DNA of 16,203 bases, taken from NCBI GenBank assembly GCA_964528605.1, contig CAZGSV010000004.1, positions 64,331-80,533 of the forward strand. Direction: 5' to 3'. The position numbers and the translations under genes were made by a program. This document shows, piece after piece, positions 1,543-12,473 of the stretch (within the stretch, counting starts at the first letter, position 1; each line of letters starts with the position of its first letter). This stretch comes from an uncultured Armatimonadia bacterium (GTDB lineage: Bacteria > Armatimonadota > Zipacnadia > CAZGSV01). The notes under the pieces were generated by a model that worked only from the letters and a program-made list of their open reading frames with translations, did not search any database and was not told where the DNA came from.

Positions 1543-1570
1543 TTTGTTTGTACGCGCGGCCCGGTACAAT
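1543..1570 (+). promoter_or_regulatory. Candidate promoter for the anti-sigma/ECF operon: AT-rich tract plus TACAAT -10
   Basis: aatatcggcgattttgtttgtacg is an unusually AT-rich stretch in 70% GC DNA. It is followed by TACAAT at 1565-1570, which is 18 nt upstream of the ATG at 1588. An AAGGA motif at 1584-1588 abuts that ATG. This is the divergent partner of the minus-strand promoter above. Confidence 0.3.
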
Positions 1571-1587: not shown

Positions 1588-2058
1588 ATGAGATTGCGCG
1601 CCAAAGACTGCCGTAGGATCCAAGTGCTTCTCCCCGGGCTGCTCACCGGCGAGGTGTCGGGCGCCGAGGCTGCGGCCTCCCGTGCCCACCTCGAGGAATG
1701 CCCTGCCTGCGCGAGCGATTTCGTGGCGCTGGAGCGGGCCGCCTGCGCCCTGCAGGCCTGGCCCGAGGCTAGAGTGAGCGACCTGGAGTCCCTGCGCCTG
1801 GCCGCGCGCCTGCGGGGCCGCCTGGCCCGTAGACGGCGCCTGGAAATCGGCGACTTCGTCTTTATGGCGGCGTGCGTCGCGTTCGTTTTGCTTGCCGCCT
1901 TGGGGTGGTCAGGTTCGGCGAAGAGCCTGCTGCCGCACCTGGGCAGCGGTTGGCCCTACCTGGTAGCGGTGGGCGCGGCGGTGGCCGGCCCGCTCACTGC
2001 CGCGTTGGCCATGCTGCTCCTCATCCATAACCGTGGTAACGGAGGCGTTCCCCAATGA
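1588..2058 (+). CDS. Putative zinc-finger (zf-HC2) anti-sigma factor with two C-terminal TM helices
   Basis: The N-terminus (CRRIQVLLPGLLTGEVSGAEAAASRAHLEECPACASDFVALE) fits the zf-HC2 anti-sigma pattern C...H-x3-C-x2-C. Two hydrophobic helices follow (FVFMAACVAFVLLAALGW and WPYLVAVGAAVAGPLTAALAMLLLI). The stop overlaps the next start as ATGA at 2055-2058. Start is uncertain: SD AAGGA abuts the ATG at 1588, and the TTG at 1594 is an alternative. Confidence 0.65.
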   Translation: MRLRAKDCRRIQVLLPGLLTGEVSGAEAAASRAHLEECPACASDFVALERAACALQAWPEARVSDLESLRLAARLRGRLARRRRLEIGDFVFMAACVAFVLLAALGWSGSAKSLLPHLGSGWPYLVAVGAAVAGPLTAALAMLLLIHNRGNGGVPQ

Positions 2059-3125
2059 ACCGTGAGAGCCTGCGCCGGCGCAAGCGTGTCGTCGGCTGGC
2101 TGTCGGTCCTTTGCTTCCTCCTCGCGATGGCGTGCGTTCCTGTACTCGCGGGGATAGCCGCCATGGAGGCCGCCTACACCCGACACCGCGCCGTTAGATT
2201 CGCACCGCCTGCGGCGAGAGTCGCGCCTGGAAGGGTTGAGTTCGCCGCCCCTCGCGACCAACTCGCCCGCGAACTGGCCGACCTCTTGAGCACGACCGCA
2301 GCCCCGGCACCCGCGGGCTCCTCTGAAGGCGCGGCCCCGGTCCAGCCGGCGGACCCGCAGAAGATACTGCAAGACTGGGTGCTCGAGCACAAAGACCACG
2401 TGCTCTTTGCTCTGGCGATTGACGGCAAGGGTCGCGCGCTGGCCGCTTTCCCCAACGAACAGATGCTCAAGTCGCTGACTTTCGACATCGCCGGGAACGT
2501 GGACGACGGCTGGGAGCCGGCGATGGACCAGATCGAGGAGGCGGGCTTGCCTCATCCCGAAGGCAACAAAGGCACGGCGGATTACATTGACCCGGCGAGC
2601 AAGAGCATCTGCTACGTGCTGCTGCACACCAAGCCTGCCGCCGCTGTCTCCGTGGAAGCCCCGCTGATAGGCGCCGTGCATTCCTATCTGGGGGGGCCTG
2701 AGTGGGACGGCCGGCGTCTCCTCGGCGTGGGTTGGGAGGGCCTCTATATTGGTCTCGCCTGCACGGGCGGTTTCTTTTGGGTGCTGTGCGTCATCTTCGC
2801 CATATGGTGGGTCGCGCTCGACGCCCGCTATCGGGGAATGCGGCGGGGGTGGCTGCTGGCTTTGTTCTGCTTCCTCACAATGCCGGTGGGGCTGCTGATC
2901 TACCTCATCGTGCGGCCCGATGAGCCGGAGCCTTGCCCCTCCTGCGGCCGCCTTGGACCGGCCGGGTTCAGCGTGTGCCCTTGGTGCGGGGCCCGACTGA
3001 GGGGCGTTTGCCCCAAGTGCAAGGCTGCCGTGGAGAAGGGCTGGCGGCTGTGCCCTTACTGTCAGACGCCGCTGGTTGCGCCAACGGCCCAGGCACCGAG
3101 CCCTAAGGAGCAAGCGGCGGAATGA
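2055..3125 (+). CDS. Membrane protein: N-terminal TM, ~200-aa extracytoplasmic domain of unknown family, PLDc_N-like two-helix module, C-terminal cytoplasmic double zinc ribbon
   Basis: ATG at 2055 is preceded by GGAGGCG 7 nt upstream and overlaps the upstream stop as ATGA. The N-terminus is MNRESLRRRKRV plus TM (WLSVLCFLLAMACVPVLAGIAA), followed by a soluble domain. The motif WWVALDARYRGMRRGWLLALFCFLTMPVGLLIYLIVRP has the PLDc_N-like W..DA..RG..W..G..YL..RP spacing. Four CxxC pairs follow (CPSCG, CPWCG, CPKC, CPYC), forming a double zinc ribbon. The stop overlaps the sigma gene start as ATGA at 3122-3125. Confidence 0.75.
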   Translation: MNRESLRRRKRVVGWLSVLCFLLAMACVPVLAGIAAMEAAYTRHRAVRFAPPAARVAPGRVEFAAPRDQLARELADLLSTTAAPAPAGSSEGAAPVQPADPQKILQDWVLEHKDHVLFALAIDGKGRALAAFPNEQMLKSLTFDIAGNVDDGWEPAMDQIEEAGLPHPEGNKGTADYIDPASKSICYVLLHTKPAAAVSVEAPLIGAVHSYLGGPEWDGRRLLGVGWEGLYIGLACTGGFFWVLCVIFAIWWVALDARYRGMRRGWLLALFCFLTMPVGLLIYLIVRPDEPEPCPSCGRLGPAGFSVCPWCGARLRGVCPKCKAAVEKGWRLCPYCQTPLVAPTAQAPSPKEQAAE

Positions 3126-3745
3126 GTCCCCTGCTAGTGCCTCAGGCGCTGTCCGCGGTCTGGCCGCTCCCGGCGAGAGCCCGGGTCAGTTGGACCGCCG
3201 CGAACTACTGTCTCGACACCGACGAGGACCTGCTGGACCGCTTCCTGCGCGGGGAGCCGGGAGGCCTCGACGCGCTGGTGCAACGCCATCATCAGCCGCT
3301 GCTCAACCTCTGCTGGCGGATGGTGGGCGACCGCGAGGCGGCCGAGGACCTGGTGCAGGAGACCTTCTGGCGCGTGCTCACCAAGGCCGATCGCTTCCGT
3401 AAGCAGGCGAGCGTCCGCACCTGGCTCTACGCCATCGCGATCAATGCTTGCCGCGATCATATCCGCAGCCGGTCGCGGCGCAGGCGCCACGTCGGCGCGC
3501 TGGAGCAGCAGGGCCTCGACGGGGCCAGCGACGAGCACGGGCAATGGGCTGCCGCGCAGACCGCGCGGGTGAGCGCCGCCCTGGCTGGCGTTGATGCGGA
3601 CACGCGCGCGGTGCTGGTGCTCCATTTCTACCGCGGCCTCTCCTATCGCGAGATCGGCCAGGTGATGCGCTGGTCGGCCTCGAGAGTAGCGCAGAGAATC
3701 CGGCGCGGACTCGAACGGCTGCACATGGTGCTTAAGGAGGCGTAG
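3122..3745 (+). CDS. ECF-type RNA polymerase sigma-70 factor
   Basis: Region 2 reads DEDLLDRFLRGEPGGLDALVQRHHQPLLNLCWRMVGDREAAEDLVQETFWRVLTKADRFRKQASVRTWLYAIAINACRDHIRSR. Region 4 reads LVLHFYRGLSYREIGQVMRWSASRVAQRIRRGLERL. The ATG at 3122 forms ATGA with the upstream stop. The ~35-aa N-terminal extension before region 2 means an internal alternative start (for example GTG at 3137) cannot be excluded. Confidence 0.85.
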   Translation: MSPLLVPQALSAVWPLPARARVSWTAANYCLDTDEDLLDRFLRGEPGGLDALVQRHHQPLLNLCWRMVGDREAAEDLVQETFWRVLTKADRFRKQASVRTWLYAIAINACRDHIRSRSRRRRHVGALEQQGLDGASDEHGQWAAAQTARVSAALAGVDADTRAVLVLHFYRGLSYREIGQVMRWSASRVAQRIRRGLERLHMVLKEA

Positions 3746-3750
3746 CGCTG

Positions 3751-4317
3751 GTGAGCGTTGACGATCCCATAGATGCGCTGATAGACCGCACCCGTTCCCG
3801 CAAGGGCATGATCGGTTGGGCGGCTGCCCTGTGCCTGGGCGCGGGGCTGTTGGGCACGGCTTTCCGCGAACTTGCGCCGCTGTTCTTCACCTGCTACTGG
3901 CTGCTGCTGGCTCTGTGGGTCTATCTCGACGCCACGCAGCGCGGCAGCACGAAGGCTTGGGCGTTCGGCATTCTCACGCTGATAGCCAACATATTCGGCC
4001 TGGCCGTGTATCTGGTGGCCAGGCCGGAGGGACCTACCGACTGCCCGTCCTGCGGCGCGCCCATGAAGCCCGAGTACCGTGTGTGCCCCGTATGCGGAGC
4101 GGCCCGGCGACCGCGTTGCCCCAAATGCGGCCAGATGCTCGACGAAGCCTGGTCCTTCTGCCCACATTGCGGCGAACGGCCCGCCAAGGCCGAGCCACAG
4201 CCGACGGCAGCCGCGGCGCCTCCCGTGCCCGCGCAGCCAGCCGAGCCCGTGGCCGCGGCGGAGCAGAGCATACCTGAGGAGTCAGGTGCCGCCGAACAAG
4301 GGCGGCCCGCCGAGTAG
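3751..4317 (+). CDS. PLDc_N-like two-helix membrane module fused to a cytoplasmic double zinc ribbon; paralog of the C-terminus of 2055..3125
   Basis: GTG start at 3751 has a strong SD (TAAGGAGG at 3734-3741, 10-nt spacing). The motif LWVYLDATQRGSTKAWAFGILTLIANIFGLAVYLVARPEGPTDCPSCG...VCPVCG...CPKCG...CPHCG aligns residue-for-residue with IWWVALDARYRGMRRGWLL...GLLIYLIVRPDEPEPCPSCG...VCPWCG...CPKC...CPYC. The tail is Pro/Ala-rich. Confidence 0.75.
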   Translation: MSVDDPIDALIDRTRSRKGMIGWAAALCLGAGLLGTAFRELAPLFFTCYWLLLALWVYLDATQRGSTKAWAFGILTLIANIFGLAVYLVARPEGPTDCPSCGAPMKPEYRVCPVCGAARRPRCPKCGQMLDEAWSFCPHCGERPAKAEPQPTAAAAPPVPAQPAEPVAAAEQSIPEESGAAEQGRPAE

Positions 4318-4354: not shown

Positions 4355-4816
4355 CTACCGTTCGGCGTGCCGGCTTGCACGCGCCTTGCGGAAGGCATAG
4401 AGATAGCAGTCGTTTGAGCCCGCGTAGAGCGTCCCGTCCGCAGCAATGGCGGGCGAAGAGTCAACGACCGCCTGCGTCTGGTAGCGCCACTCGAGACGAC
4501 CGTCCGAAGCCACCGCGTACACCGCCCCATCCCACGAACCGAAGTACACCGTGCCGTCGGGGCCGATGGCGGGAGAGGAGCGAACCGGCCCGCTGGCCCG
4601 AGACTTCCACCTCAAGAGCGCGTCTTGAGGGCCCGCATAGGGGCTCGCGCCGGTGTGAGATAGGTTGAGCCGGAACATGGGCCAGGGGCTCTCGGCCAGT
4701 TGCGCTTGCGCTCTCTGTGGAACGATGGTTGCTGCCAGAAGCAGGGCGGCGGCCGCGACGACGAGGCGGGTGGTCCAGGGAGGGAGACGGCAGTCCAACT
4801 TCGCTCGGCCTTTCAT
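4355..4816 (-). CDS. Small secreted PQQ-repeat (beta-propeller blade) protein, possibly truncated
   Basis: From track ORF 4355..4960, trimmed to the Met that begins a signal peptide (MKGRAKLDCRLPPWTTRLVVAAAALLLAATIVPQRAQAQ). Three PQQ-like repeats follow (SSPAIGPDGTVYFGSWDGAVYAV, SSPAIAADGTLYAGSNDCYLYAF). It is convergent with 3751..4317. Three blades are too few for a closed propeller. Confidence 0.55.
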   Translation of the reverse strand: MKGRAKLDCRLPPWTTRLVVAAAALLLAATIVPQRAQAQLAESPWPMFRLNLSHTGASPYAGPQDALLRWKSRASGPVRSSPAIGPDGTVYFGSWDGAVYAVASDGRLEWRYQTQAVVDSSPAIAADGTLYAGSNDCYLYAFRKARASRHAER

Positions 4817-5056
4817 CCGACACCACCCCCAAGTGGTTCGGGTGTGGGATGCGCTCGCGGCGGCCCAGCGTGACCGCCCAGCCAGGCGACATCCCCAGCC
4901 GGCGCCGATGGCCGGCGCAGCCTCTCTCGCGAGCAGCCACGAGCGCCTCACCGATCCCACGTCATATTAGACCACGGCAGGGCCCGGAGGTGAGTGCTTT
5001 CTGACAAAAAGCGTGGGAGGTCCTGGCGGGCTCGTCCTCTCCCGCCGGCACCGTGC

Positions 5057-6447: not shown

Positions 6448-7467
6448 ATGGCCGCTTCGTACCCGTTCGTGCGCGCCGGCGGCGGGCCGCGAGAGATGGG
6501 CAGGCAGATCGGCGAGCAAGTGCGCGCGCACATCCCCCCCATCCTCGAGGAACTCAAGGTGCCGGCCAACTACGGCAGCCTAAGCCACCAGCGGCGCGCG
6601 CAGCAGGTGCTAGCCAACATGGAGCGCGACGCGCCGCACCTGGTCGAGGAAATGCGCGGCATCGCCGAGGGCAGCGGCATTCCCTTCGACACCATTCTGG
6701 TCTACAACGCGATCGCGGAGATGTGGTACGTGCGCGAGTGCACCGCGATCGGCTTTGCGGACACGCCCGAGGGCGTGGTCATCGGCAAGACCAACGACAT
6801 CGGCGAGAACAAGGCCCACTACCATATCCCGCACCTGCTCGCGCCCGACGGAGGCGAGCGGCTGCTGGTCTTCACTTGGCCGGGCACGGTGTGGGTGAAC
6901 GCCGGGGTGAACGAATCGGGCGTCGGCATCGGCAGCGCGAGCATATCCTCCGCCGAGTTCGAGTCTGCGGGCATCATCTCCAACTGCGTCTACCGCCTGG
7001 TGCTCGAGCGCGCGCGCGACTTCGAACAGGGCCTGGAGGCCCTGCGCGAGGTGCGCTACATGTGCCATCCGTTCAACGTCGTCCTGGGCGACGCGGCCGG
7101 CGGGTTGGCGGCCGTGGAGCGCCCGGTCACCAAGATGGCGGTGCGCCGGCCCGAGAACGGGGCGGTCTTCGTGACCAACCACTGGGAGGAGCCGGAGACG
7201 GCCGCGCTGTGCAGCATCTCCGACCAACTGCGCGGGAACAGCAAACGCCGGTTCGAGAACCTGCGGCGGCTGGTGCGCACCGTGCCTCACACCGTCGAGG
7301 GGATGATCTCGGTGGTGCGCGACCACAATCCCTCCGGCGGCATCTGCCAGCACGGCGACGCGAACATGCACTCGTCCGCCGGATACGTGGTGGTGCCCTC
7401 GCAGAGGCGGGTGTGGTTTGCTTACGGGCGGCCGTGCGAGGTGGAGTTCGAGCCGTACGACCTTTGA
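6448..7467 (+). CDS. Cytoplasmic peptidase-C45 / acyl-CoA:6-APA acyltransferase-like Ntn hydrolase
   Basis: It starts 4 nt after the aminotransferase stop. No signal peptide is present. A candidate nucleophile Cys is in VRECTAIGF. The protein is co-linear with the two secreted paralogs downstream (EMRGIAEGSGIPFDTI vs EMCGLAEASGVPLETI; WPGTVWVNAGVNESGVGIG vs NLWVGVNWAGFLGTTACF). Confidence 0.7.
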   Translation: MAASYPFVRAGGGPREMGRQIGEQVRAHIPPILEELKVPANYGSLSHQRRAQQVLANMERDAPHLVEEMRGIAEGSGIPFDTILVYNAIAEMWYVRECTAIGFADTPEGVVIGKTNDIGENKAHYHIPHLLAPDGGERLLVFTWPGTVWVNAGVNESGVGIGSASISSAEFESAGIISNCVYRLVLERARDFEQGLEALREVRYMCHPFNVVLGDAAGGLAAVERPVTKMAVRRPENGAVFVTNHWEEPETAALCSISDQLRGNSKRRFENLRRLVRTVPHTVEGMISVVRDHNPSGGICQHGDANMHSSAGYVVVPSQRRVWFAYGRPCEVEFEPYDL

Positions 7468-7634: not shown

Positions 7635-7901
7635 ATGGACCGCGACAAGGAACTACTCGCGCGATTCGCTCGCGGCGAGGACTCGGCCTTTGACGTGCTC
7701 TTCGACCGGCACGCGCGGCGCGTCTTTGACTACCTGACGCGTGTGATGGGTGACGCGGAGGTGGCGGCCGCCGAGCAAGTAGGCATGTGCACCATGGAGC
7801 AGTCGTTGGCTCGCCTGGTCCGCCAGGGCCTGGTGGACGCGGAAGAAGCAAGAAGAGTCGCCCCTGATCCCCCCAAGTTAGAGCGCTACCTCACTCGGTA
7901 G
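7635..7901 (+). pseudogene. 88-codon chimeric ORF: ECF sigma-70 region-2 N-terminus fused in frame to a PilT/PilU-type ATPase C-terminus (gene remnants)
   Basis: MDRDKELLARFARGEDSAFDVLFDRHARRVFDYLTRVMGDAEVA matches the start of ECF sigma region 2 (compare DEDLLDRFLRGE...MVGDREAAEDLVQ in 3122..3745). The rest, GMCTMEQSLARLVRQGLVDAEEARRVAPDPPKLERYLTR, matches the conserved PilT C-terminal tail (GMQT-DQSL..L...G.I..EEA.R.A.DP..L.R). No SD precedes it. It forms the last 88 codons of overlapping track ORF 6723..7901, which is in a different frame from the C45 gene. Confidence 0.45.
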
Positions 7902-10147: not shown

Positions 10148-11254
10148 ATGGAACGACTCGCGCTTCTGGTGGCAGTGGCGCTTCCGCTCGCCTTCGCGTG
10201 TGGCTTTGCTGAGGTAGGGCCGGCCAAGACTGCGGTGATCGGCGAAGGAGCGGACGCGATCACCGTGGTCTATCTCGATCAGCCGAGCGCCTACGAGCGC
10301 GGCCTCGCCTACGGTAAGGCAATGGCAGGTCCTATCGCCGCGACCATGAGCCAGTTCCTGCAGAGCCTCCAGTGGACGCCGGAGCAGATGGACCAGGTCT
10401 ACGCCAAGCAGGAGCCTTTCATCCCGCAGGACATCAAAGACGAGATGTGCGGGCTCGCGGAGGCGTCCGGAGTTCCACTGGAGACCATTCGACGCGTGCA
10501 CGCGGTCCCGGAACTCTTCGAGTCGCAATGCTCCAACGTTGTGGCCTGGGGCGCCGCCACCGAGGGGGGCAGGCTGTATGCCCTGCGCGTGCTCGACTGG
10601 TTGCTGACCACAGGAGCGCAAGAGCATCCGGTGGTACTTGTGGAGCGTCCCGAGCGCGGCAACCTGTGGGTGGGAGTGAACTGGGCCGGCTTCTTGGGCA
10701 CCACTGCCTGCTTCAATGAGAAGCAGTTCACCTCGGGCGAGATGTCCGCGGGCAAGTTCTACCCGGAGCGGCTTGAGGGCACCCCGCACAACTTCCTGAT
10801 GCCTGAGGTGTTGCGGCAGTCAGATACGCTGCAGGAGGCGCTGGACAACTTCCGCAATGCCAGCCGCACGGCGGCCCTCTTCTATGCGGTCGGCGATGCC
10901 AAGATTCCTGAGGGGCGGCTGCTGCTGACGGGGGCGGACCAGTTCACGGAGATTCGCGCCAACGACCCCACCTACGCCTTGCTCGGCCTGCCCGGAATAG
11001 CAGATGTGGTGTACGGGAGCCTCAAGAACGAGGTGTGTGCCGCGATGCTTCAGGAGCACTACGGCGCCATCAACCCGGAGGTCTGCAAGGAGATTGGCCG
11101 GGCGGTGGCCTCCGATGACAGCGCGCTGCACATCGTCGTCTTTGACCCGGGCAACCTGAAGATGTGGGTGGCCAACGCCGAGGGGGCTGAGTCCGCACAG
11201 CACCGCCCGTTCGTGGAGTTCGACCTGCGGCAAGCCCTCCAGGCCATGCAGTAG
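10148..11254 (+). CDS. Secreted peptidase-C45 / acyltransferase-like Ntn hydrolase, paralog A
   Basis: Signal peptide MERLALLVAVALPLAFA|CGFAEV with an AxA cleavage site. The candidate nucleophile is in FESQCSNVVAWGAATEGGRLYALRVLDW. Length is 368 aa. Confidence 0.75.
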   Translation: MERLALLVAVALPLAFACGFAEVGPAKTAVIGEGADAITVVYLDQPSAYERGLAYGKAMAGPIAATMSQFLQSLQWTPEQMDQVYAKQEPFIPQDIKDEMCGLAEASGVPLETIRRVHAVPELFESQCSNVVAWGAATEGGRLYALRVLDWLLTTGAQEHPVVLVERPERGNLWVGVNWAGFLGTTACFNEKQFTSGEMSAGKFYPERLEGTPHNFLMPEVLRQSDTLQEALDNFRNASRTAALFYAVGDAKIPEGRLLLTGADQFTEIRANDPTYALLGLPGIADVVYGSLKNEVCAAMLQEHYGAINPEVCKEIGRAVASDDSALHIVVFDPGNLKMWVANAEGAESAQHRPFVEFDLRQALQAMQ

Positions 11255-11332: not shown

Positions 11333-11366
11333 ATAGGGCGTGAGGTTGGGGATAGGAGGACGCTCA

Positions 11367-12473
11367 GTGACGCGCTTTGTACTGTGCTTGGTAACACTGG
11401 TGCTGTTGACCCCCACTTACGCCCCCGCGGAAGTCGCACCGGCGCGTACCGCTGTCATCGGTGACGGTGCGGACGCGATCACCGTCGTCTATCTGGACCA
11501 GCCCACTGCCTACGAACGCGGCTTTGCCTATGGCAAGGCGCTGGCCAGCCAGATGGCGGTGATGGTTCCTCGTTTCCTGCAGTCCTTTGAGTGGACACCG
11601 GAGCGCATGGACGAAGTCTATGCGATGCAGGAGCCGTTCATATCTGACGACATCAAGGAAGAGATGCGCGGTCTGGCCGACGGCTCGGGCTTGCCGCTCG
11701 AGGCGATTCACCGGGCGCACATCGTGCCCGAGTTGGCCGAGTTCCACTGCTCCAACTTCGCGGCCTGGGGATCGGCAACGGAGGACGGCCGGCTGTATGC
11801 CATTCGCGTGCTCGACTGGGAGATGAACTCGGGCTGTCAGGATTACCCGGTCATCGTCGTGAGCCGTCCCGAGTCGGGCAACCTTTGGGTCGGCGTGAAT
11901 TGGGCGGGCTTCGTGGGCGCGGTGTCGGGCTTCAACGAAAAGGGCATCTCGGTGGGCGAGATGACGGCGGGCACCACGTTTCCCGAACGCCTCGAGGGCG
12001 AACCGATGCCGTTCGTCTTCCGCGAGGTGCTGCGGTATTCGAGTACGCTGGGGGAGGCGGTGGAGAACTTCCGCAACGCCACCCGCACCTCGTGTTTCTT
12101 CTTTGCGGTGGGCGACGCCAAGATTCCTGCGGGCGAGATACTGCTGACGGGCTACGACCAGTTCCTGGAGATCAACGGCGGCGACCCCAAGTACGCGCTG
12201 TTCGGATTGCCTGCCATTCAGGACGTGGTGTACGGCAGCTACAAGAACCAACTGTGCGCCCAGATGCTACAGGAGAATCACGGCGCGATAAACGTTGACA
12301 TCGCCAAGCGGATCGCTCGGGCGGTCGCCTCCGATGACAGCGCGCTGCACATGGTGGTGTTCGATCCGGGCAACCTCAAGATCTGGGTGGCCAATGCGGA
12401 GGGCAAGGAGCCCTCGCAGAAGCGGCCGTTCGTCGAGTTCGACTTGCAGCAGTTCTTGGAGGCGGTGAAATGA
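11367..12473 (+). CDS. Secreted peptidase-C45 / acyltransferase-like Ntn hydrolase, paralog B
   Basis: The start is set at the in-frame GTG at 11367, which lies 6 nt after SD AGGAGGA. It gives the signal peptide MTRFVLCLVTLVLLTPTYAPAEV. The track ATG at 11340 lies upstream of the SD. The protein is co-linear with paralog A (AVIGDGADAITVVYLDQPTAYERG vs AVIGEGADAITVVYLDQPSAYERG; CSNFAAWGSATEDGRLYAIRVLDW). Confidence 0.75.
   Translation: MTRFVLCLVTLVLLTPTYAPAEVAPARTAVIGDGADAITVVYLDQPTAYERGFAYGKALASQMAVMVPRFLQSFEWTPERMDEVYAMQEPFISDDIKEEMRGLADGSGLPLEAIHRAHIVPELAEFHCSNFAAWGSATEDGRLYAIRVLDWEMNSGCQDYPVIVVSRPESGNLWVGVNWAGFVGAVSGFNEKGISVGEMTAGTTFPERLEGEPMPFVFREVLRYSSTLGEAVENFRNATRTSCFFFAVGDAKIPAGEILLTGYDQFLEINGGDPKYALFGLPAIQDVVYGSYKNQLCAQMLQENHGAINVDIAKRIARAVASDDSALHMVVFDPGNLKIWVANAEGKEPSQKRPFVEFDLQQFLEAVK

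Follow-up and report, generated by a model that had tools for sequence, protein, structure and literature searches.

In a 16,203-nucleotide (nt) stretch of DNA from an uncultured Armatimonadia bacterium (contig CAZGSV010000004.1; hereafter the window, in which all positions are counted unless a locus is named), four consecutive genes on the + strand, g1 to g4, encode a predicted zinc-type anti-sigma factor, a long membrane protein, a sigma factor of the extracytoplasmic function (ECF) type, and a short membrane protein (Table 1). The second and fourth products share an architecture in which a pair of hydrophobic segments similar to the PLDc_N family stands directly before a double zinc ribbon (DZR), and we refer to proteins of this kind as the hairpin-DZR family. 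We found members of the family together with an ECF sigma factor and a small two-helix membrane protein in 9/9 independent lineages for which enough flanking DNA was available. On the anatomy of the proteins and this conserved linkage, the most likely reading of the region, which we hold with moderate confidence for its two parts jointly, is that it is one operon, in which an ECF sigma switch is joined by an additional type of membrane partner, and that it would act as a three-part switch.

Table 1. Features of the four-gene module, with positions in the window; lengths of proteins in amino acids (aa)
Feature	Position	Strand	Basis
TACAAT, possible -10 element	1565-1570	+	read in sequence; conserved in close relative L009; weak
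g1, predicted membrane-anchored zinc-type (ZAS, zf-HC2) anti-sigma factor, 156 aa	1588-2058	+	PF13490, 30.9 bits vs. cutoff 22.2
g1 zf-HC2 core, residues 8-42	1609-1713	+	Pfam, model positions 1-35 of 35
g1 two-helix membrane hairpin, residues 84-148	1837-2031	+	hydropathy
g2, long hairpin-DZR membrane protein, candidate sensor, 356 aa	2055-3125	+	DZR, 41.2 bits
g2 putative extracytoplasmic domain, residues ~42-228	2178-2738	+	hydropathy; no family match
g2 PLDc_N-like hydrophobic pair and WVALDARYRGMRRG loop, residues 229-288	2739-2918	+	hydropathy, family alignment
g2 double zinc ribbon, residues 294-336, four CxxC pairs	2934-3062	+	PF12773, E = 1.8e-10
g3, ECF (group 4) sigma factor, 207 aa, N-terminal extension of ~30 residues	3122-3745	+	Pfam, NCBIfam
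Shine-Dalgarno sequence AAGGAGG of g4	3734-3740	+	read in sequence, 10 nt 5' of GTG 3751
g4, short hairpin-DZR membrane protein, 188 aa, GTG start	3751-4317	+	DZR, 43.2 bits
g4 PLDc_N-like hydrophobic pair, WVYLDATQRG loop, residues 41-92	3871-4026	+	hydropathy
g4 double zinc ribbon, residues 98-141	4042-4173	+	PF12773, E = 4.5e-11

Conserved Linkage to ECF Sigma Factors

An exhaustive HMMER search over 1.84 billion cluster representatives (one for each cluster at 50% identity) returned 1647 representatives of the hairpin-DZR family at E < 1e-3 and 329 at E < 1e-10. We collected genomic context by three routes: from homologs of g4, from a metagenome scan with the alignment of the hairpin-DZR module, and from look-ups of four diverse representatives. 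The nine informative lineages are the clade of the window (with its close relative L009), L003, L006, L010/L011, L014, L015, L020, L021, and L022, and their GC contents span 34–68%. Wherever the upstream DNA sufficed, the sigma factor, the two-helix protein, and the hairpin-DZR protein were on the same strand, with gene calls that mostly overlapped. The truncated loci L013 and L023 do not reach that far, and the upstream fragment of L023 is again a membrane protein. The possibility that four unrelated, tightly packed genes are adjacent by chance, for which nothing would speak except that compact genomes generally contain many 4-nt overlaps, is negligible because the linkage recurs in every informative locus of nine independent lineages; the association of sigma and DZR proteins put forward in the original prediction, which had been made from the letters of the window, is therefore no accident of this contig.

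The middle gene, between the sigma factor and the hairpin-DZR protein, varies in its zinc motif and is constant in its architecture. The sigma gene is followed by a 161-aa HxxxCxxC protein and a short DZR protein in L006, by a zf-HC2 protein and two DZR proteins in L010/L011, by an HxxxCxxC protein and a long DZR protein in L014 and L015, and by a zf-HC2 protein and a short DZR protein in L020; in L021, a frameshifted sigma gene precedes a 92-aa two-helix protein and a DZR protein, and in L022 (GC 34%) the sigma factor precedes a 111-aa two-helix protein and a DZR protein. Support for zf-HC2 in the middle gene is significant in L010 and weak or below threshold in L006, L015, and L020, L014 has the HxxxCxxC motif only, and the proteins of L021 and L022 have no zinc motif. 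The two-helix architecture seen in g1 is nevertheless present in the middle-gene proteins of L006, L010, L014, L015, L020, L021, and L022, and all these loci keep the middle gene in its sensor-less form. The presence of two DZR partners in one operon, as in the window, also recurs in L010.

The linkage looks different from the side of the sigma factor. The close relatives of g3 form one clade (96–98% and 60% identity), and the next step down is to 35–40%; at that distance, none of the three next-nearest sigma factors that we examined outside the clade had a DZR partner. The sigma factors that do have such partners are only ~30–35% identical to g3. The association is thus anchored on the membrane-protein family, with no obvious sigma clade at this resolution, and the expected co-occurrence of this type of sigma with DZR proteins held when approached from the DZR proteins and failed (3/3 without DZR) when approached from the sigma.

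Some of the loci showed further peculiarities. The two consecutive DZR membrane proteins of L010 (4187-5818 and 5834-7015 of that locus) lie 3' of the anti-sigma gene; two CarboxypepD_reg domains (E = 4e-31) stand at the C terminus of the first, and the second consists of two hairpin-ribbon units and one CarboxypepD_reg domain. In L021, where the sigma gene (258-754) precedes the gene of a 302-aa DZR protein, a frameshift separates region 2 of the sigma from its remainder, and the split reflects either an assembly error or a pseudogene. A promoter-like motif, ATCGACTTTTTC and ATCCTGTATA separated by 8–9 nt, is found 5' of the sigma gene in L014 (~1790-1810) and L015 (~690-715) and has no equivalent in the window.

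Gene Order and Packing

The usual order in the family is sigma, anti-sigma, and DZR protein. The order of the window (anti-sigma, long DZR, sigma, short DZR) is found complete in L009, at 92–98% identity, and L003 (55–60% identity) has g2, sigma, and g4 as far as its contig reaches. As this order is seen only in L009 and L003 and the distant relatives have sigma, anti-sigma, and DZR protein, it is a clade-specific rearrangement and no defining trait of the system. The gene order had been singled out as inverted, and it is so in the window and its clade; it is confined to that clade, however, and an anti-sigma gene at position -1 has a precedent in ECF36 (PMC7826278).

The packing of the four genes is as first described, with an ATGA at 2055-2058 giving a 4-nt overlap of g1 and g2, a second ATGA at 3122-3125 giving the same overlap of g2 and g3, and the stop codon TAG of g3 (3743-3745) separated by 5 nt from the GTG of g4, the strong Shine–Dalgarno sequence of which precedes this stop codon. 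The Shine–Dalgarno sequence of g2 (GGAGG, 9-nt spacer) lies inside g1, and that of g3 (AAGGAG, 11-nt spacer) inside g2. In one public gene call, the sigma factor begins only with codon 6, a GTG, and is 202 aa long, which would abolish the overlap of g2 and g3; the ATG start is favored, as the Shine–Dalgarno site belongs to the ATG, and the corresponding gene calls also overlap by 4 nt in the 60%-identical relative L003. Comparisons with relatives gave ratios of nonsynonymous to synonymous substitution rates (dN/dS) of 0.10–0.45 for the four genes, with g1 at 0.10 against L009, and all four are genuine genes under purifying selection. Overlaps of four bases are common in bacterial operons and are alone no proof of fixed stoichiometry, and the description of the genes as a stoichiometrically co-translated unit claimed more than such overlaps can show.

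The possible -10 element lies in the divergent intergenic region of ~130 bp 5' of g1. A promoter scan of this region found no promoter, and we recognized no motif of the ECF type in it. An Rfam scan of the window gave no match, and PADLOC detected no defense system, its sole match being a Cas12f zinc ribbon at chance level (E = 0.0085). Terminator-like sites inside the open reading frames (ORFs) fall in T-rich codons of membrane helices and were rejected as spurious.

The Sigma and Anti-Sigma Factors

Profile searches bore out the domain labels that had been assigned from the sequence alone, namely the ECF sigma factor, the zf-HC2 anti-sigma factor, and the two double zinc ribbons. In g3, Sigma70_r2 (PF04542) matched region 2 at residues 52-120 with 74.2 bits, and region 4 at residues 149-200 was matched by Sigma70_r4_2 (PF08281) with 39.9 bits and by PF04545 with 44.3 bits; the ECF superfamily model TIGR02937 gave 106.2 bits (cutoff 42.9). 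Region 3 had no Pfam match. With sigma-2 and sigma-4, a small size and neither region 1.1 nor region 3, the protein has the makeup of an ECF (group 4) sigma factor, and among proteins of solved structure its best matches are ordinary ECF sigmas. It reached none of the NCBIfam equivalog models, including that for SigY (90.6 bits, cutoff 194).

The candidate zinc ligands of g1 are C8, H34, C38, and C41, the last three of which form HxxxCxxC. This motif, the match to PF13490 above its cutoff, and an operon shared with an ECF sigma are what is expected of a class I zinc-type anti-sigma (ZAS), and the arrangement of g1 with the sigma gene is kept in L009. The two hydrophobic helices are C-terminal (residues 84-111 and 123-148 by hydropathy) and leave a loop of ~11–18 residues between them, in agreement with the earlier description of an anti-sigma with almost no outer segment. 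By these features, g1 is predicted to be a membrane-anchored zinc-type anti-sigma factor without a sensor domain, and to inhibit the sigma factor. The NCBIfam model of RsrA gave E = 0.0045 and 17 bits (cutoff 62.5).

The Hairpin-DZR Proteins

According to hydropathy, g2 has one N-terminal helix followed by ~190 residues and then two hydrophobic segments, and three such segments are present in g4, the tail of which is rich in Pro and Ala. The two proteins share a hairpin, in which a WV-x-LDA-x-x-RG loop links two hydrophobic segments and which stands directly before the ribbons. Each ribbon has four CxxC pairs and scores above the PF12773 (DZR) cutoff of 27.3 bits, and zinc binding is predicted. 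In an alignment of 15 family members, the eight ribbon cysteines are invariant, as are the D, G, Y, and R columns of the hairpin. Within the window, the similarity to PLDc_N (PF13396, cutoff 23.3 bits) is below the cutoff, g4 reaching 13 bits (E = 0.1, residues 52-91) and g2 having no match; PLDc_N matched 11/15 aligned members at E ≤ 1, the best at E = 5.8e-5. The label PLDc_N-like, which had been given to the two window proteins, is therefore reasonable at the level of the family. Pfam and NCBIfam searches found no catalytic domain in g2 or g4.

The relatives of g2 in the HMMER search cover only its C-terminal ~110 residues (~240-350), and a word-indexed search with g2 returned only g2 itself; its exact sequence, when looked up, matched no contig. 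Orthologs of g2 are present in L009 (92% identity) and L003 (42–43%). The homologs of g4, namely P0123 (83%), P0124 (55%), and P0125 (38%), have their start at the identical position; P0124 and P0125 each lie within a sigma operon, and P0123 comes from a contig of 824 bp. At the DNA level, the echoes of g2 in g4 are always 1108 nt apart from their counterparts. The shared modules of the two proteins are 32% identical, and in a neighbor-joining tree, weak and without bootstrap, they are not sisters, g4 being closer to L023 (48%) and L010a (41%) than to g2. Because of this low identity and their separate placement, g2 and g4 are taken to be two old paralogs, and a recent local duplication was rejected as their origin.

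Not all family members carry the hairpin behind an outer domain. In ~39/130 representatives (P0126-P0274), the hairpin and ribbons are N-terminal, with another helix and then ~150 residues of a C-terminal domain behind them; P0154, which lies within its sigma operon (L021), is an example. From this architecture it seems that a sensor domain can be joined to the hairpin-DZR module in a second manner. Two candidate relatives were discarded: a PilB-type ATPase with a C-terminal DZR, the one false relative in a scan of genome contigs with the module alignment, and the DZR of a cyclase, the one irrelevant match of a tblastn search of plasmids with g4.

The outer domain of g2, described initially as ~200 aa of no recognized family, is slightly shorter at ~190 residues and indeed matched no described family: searches of Pfam, NCBIfam, and PDB sequences with the domain were negative, and a profile of it found nothing among PDB sequences. 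Against Pfam, the profile gave Cache/CHASE hints in single members, which are below threshold and not evidence of that fold. In a comparison against a small database, the domain was weakly related (E ~1e-7) to the equivalent region of P0231 and of L010-type proteins, with which it has in common the motif VLFALAIDGKGRALAAFP, of the type VAAAALLDxxGxVIAAFP. The AlphaFold model of g2 from a single sequence had a predicted local distance difference test (pLDDT) score of 48.8, the outer domain being unusable at 25–55, and that of g4 from an alignment of four sequences was also of low confidence (pLDDT 58.0).

Proposed Mechanism and Alternatives

In the three-part switch that we favor, g1 would hold the sigma factor g3 at the membrane and would have no sensor of its own. 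The long protein g2, with g4 as a sensor-less accessory, would pack its hydrophobic hairpin against the two-helix anchor of g1, and this packing would either keep the anti-sigma competent or shield it from intramembrane proteolysis. An anti-sigma with almost nothing outside the membrane would be a ready substrate for intramembrane cleavage by site-2 proteases unless it is shielded, and in one appealing form of the model the partner could act as the shield. A signal at the outer domain of g2, which is the only sizeable outer domain in the module, would alter the contact of the hairpin with g1, upon which the anti-sigma would be inactivated and the sigma freed to transcribe its regulon. As a sensor-less paralog, g4 may modulate the same contact as g2. 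In this arrangement, g2 probably senses on behalf of the sensor-less anti-sigma. The membrane relay of the original prediction, with the short paralog as a modulator or decoy, is likewise a hypothesis.

A different role for the DZR membrane proteins would be that of outputs of the sigma factor, as envelope or membrane-lipid proteins that stand in the operon for co-expression only. In cardiolipin synthases, the PLDc_N hairpin serves as the N-terminal membrane anchor, and the match of PLDc_N to 11/15 family members can be read in this way, as can the wide variation of outer domains and C-terminal tails (CarboxypepD_reg, PEGA), which might be expected of effectors; moreover, autoregulation is common among ECF operons, and effector genes can be part of them. 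We nevertheless consider the output role rather unlikely, as the slot directly after the anti-sigma, with mostly overlapping calls, is kept in nine lineages, the anti-sigma in these loci never has its own sensor domain, g2 and g4 lack a recognizable catalytic domain, and the extra membrane protein of ECF31, YxlD, is required for regulation. A sensing role could also be sought in g1 alone, which would then act as a thiol/zinc redox switch of the RsrA type through C8/H34/C38/C41, with the DZR proteins stabilizing or localizing it. The HxxxCxxC motif, the cysteine upstream of it, and the faint RsrA similarity are compatible with such a switch, but that similarity is far below the cutoff of the model, most zinc-type anti-sigmas are not redox switches, and the middle proteins of L021 and L022 have no zinc motif and yet keep their DZR partner, so that we find this explanation very improbable.

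A further alternative depends on whether the ribbons face the cytoplasm or the outside, for which we computed charge statistics as the mean number of lysine and arginine residues (K+R) over 130 family representatives. The 10-residue loop after the first hairpin segment had a mean of 2.7, the N-tail of proteins with an N-terminal hairpin 0.3, and the 15 residues before a single upstream helix 3.1, values that would place the DA-x-x-RG loop in the cytoplasm. In the 44 proteins with a helix following the ribbons, the means were 3.6 for the 15 residues before that helix and 0.75 for the 15 residues after it, which would place the ribbons in the cytoplasm too. If the loop is cytoplasmic and both hairpin segments span the membrane, the ribbons are outside; loop and ribbons can both be cytoplasmic only with a second hydrophobic segment that is re-entrant instead of spanning. 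This segment contains an invariant glycine in its middle and ends in an invariant tyrosine and arginine. With the ribbons outside, their eight cysteines could sense envelope redox or metal and the outer domain of g2 would be secondary. Such a placement follows from the positive-inside statistics of the loop if both segments span, and it would agree with the L010-type proteins, in which a CarboxypepD_reg domain, usually extracellular, stands directly after the ribbons with no helix between. Against it are the strongly positive ribbon-side flank of the next helix in the 44 relatives, the occurrence of DZR in cytoplasmic proteins such as the PilB-type ATPase and the cyclase, and the rarity of Cys4 zinc sites outside the cytoplasm, and we judge sensing by external ribbons improbable. 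For the 190-residue domain of g2, the best reading is a location outside, suggested by the strongly positive N-tail RRRKR.

Several observations weigh against the three-part switch as such. Conserved co-transcription fits equally well with DZR proteins that are output genes of the sigma; the indicators of ribbon topology (charge flanks, CarboxypepD_reg, cytoplasmic DZR proteins) conflict with each other, and the AlphaFold models of g2 and g4 are too poor to resolve the topology. The outer domains are very divergent across lineages (hhalign probabilities 1–68%) and the short forms have none, which makes one ligand common to all of them unlikely.

ECF sigma factors are among the main signaling devices of bacteria, and the signal reception of most groups is unknown. 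The hairpin-DZR family, with at least 1647 clusters at 50% identity, is a concrete and testable candidate for a separate sensor or co-anti-sigma. More tentatively, the hairpin-DZR proteins at large could be a widespread, undescribed third component of ECF systems that gives sensory input to minimal anti-sigmas and exerts its control within the membrane, e.g., by shielding from a site-2 protease, where the classical route is to cleave the outer domain of the anti-sigma; the window would then be a variant with two non-sister paralogs in a permuted order. The linkage also provides a likely biological context for PLDc_N as a stand-alone hairpin and for DZR, two very common Pfam domains that carry no functional information. 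It reveals no new principle and instead points to a large class of candidate ECF sensors.

Surroundings of the Module

The module is flanked on one side by a divergent Metallophos phosphoesterase gene (622-1569, - strand), whose product has a signal-peptide-like start at Met39, and on the other by a convergent fragment of a PQQ-like beta-propeller (4355-4960, - strand); these genes may or may not belong to the regulon. Farther along the + strand, an ORF of 88 aa (7635-7901) is an apparent chimera of an ECF sigma N terminus and a PilT C terminus. Its residues 2-44 are sigma-like (E = 5e-9 with our own sigma profile and E = 0.05 with a PDB sigma) and its residues 43-86 resemble the C terminus of the twitching-motility ATPase PilT (E = 5e-6), and it is probably the remnant of a rearrangement. 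Two distant paralogs on the + strand (6448-7467 and 11340-12473) match PF03417, the acyl-CoA:6-aminopenicillanic-acid acyltransferase family, with E = 1.5e-14 and 3.3e-4, and a 368-aa ORF at 10148-11254 has no family match.

Comparison with Known Systems

We compared the module with the groups of the ECF reclassification, using its text and supplement (Casas-Pastor et al. 2021, PMC7826278; bioRxiv 10.1101/2019.12.11.873521). The group ECF31, that of Bacillus subtilis SigY, has a two-helix anti-sigma, YxlC, a further protein required for regulation, YxlD, and a PLDc_N protein in its conserved context (PMC7826278). It shares with the window the ECF sigma, the two-helix and sensor-less anti-sigma, the further small membrane protein, and the protein of PLDc_N type. 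ECF31 is 100% Firmicutes, has ABC transporter genes in its context, and has its anti-sigma listed as DUF2207 and DUF5345 (PMC7826278); in the window, the anti-sigma is zf-HC2, the GC content is 63–70%, and no ABC transporter was found within the 16 kb, and no zinc ribbon is described for ECF31. In the uncharacterized subgroup ECF246s5 of Paenibacillus, the gene at +1 encodes a candidate two-helix anti-sigma and the gene at +2 a PLDc_N protein (PMC7826278). Compared by description only, this order and architecture equal those of the relatives L006, L020, and L022, and differ from the window, where the order is permuted and two partners are present; no zinc ribbon is mentioned for ECF246s5.

In the classification, a double zinc ribbon is mentioned solely in connection with a phage sigma, zinc ribbons are incidental neighbors only in ECF214s10 and ECF253s2, and no group is described with a zinc-ribbon partner (PMC7826278); full-text literature searches likewise turned up no publication in which an ECF system has a DZR membrane protein as partner. 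The statement in the original prediction that it was aware of no described ECF group defined by PLDc_N-like and double-zinc-ribbon partners thus holds for the zinc ribbon and has to be amended for PLDc_N, partners of which type are on record for ECF31 and ECF246s5. The pairs RsrA–SigR, RslA–SigL, and ChrR–RpoE, which are of the kind to which the nearest solved sigmas belong, resemble the window in combining an HxxxCxxC anti-sigma and an ECF sigma in one operon; unlike the window, they are two-component, their anti-sigmas are soluble or have their own outer domain, and they have no PLDc_N or DZR partner. The window hairpin is like PLDc_N (PF13396) in its two hydrophobic segments, short loop, and conserved Asp and Arg/Lys; but whereas PLDc_N is the anchor of cardiolipin synthases and makes up many small stand-alone proteins, the window module has the ribbon fused to the hairpin and has no phospholipase domain. 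The module resembles the ECF systems with accessory proteins, and the ECF31 context that we looked for, ABC transporter genes with a YxlD-type protein in a Firmicutes genome, is not found in it. It is of a known kind, an ECF sigma and anti-sigma pair with accessory membrane proteins, and what is new is the family to which these partners belong, apparently uncharacterized and widespread.

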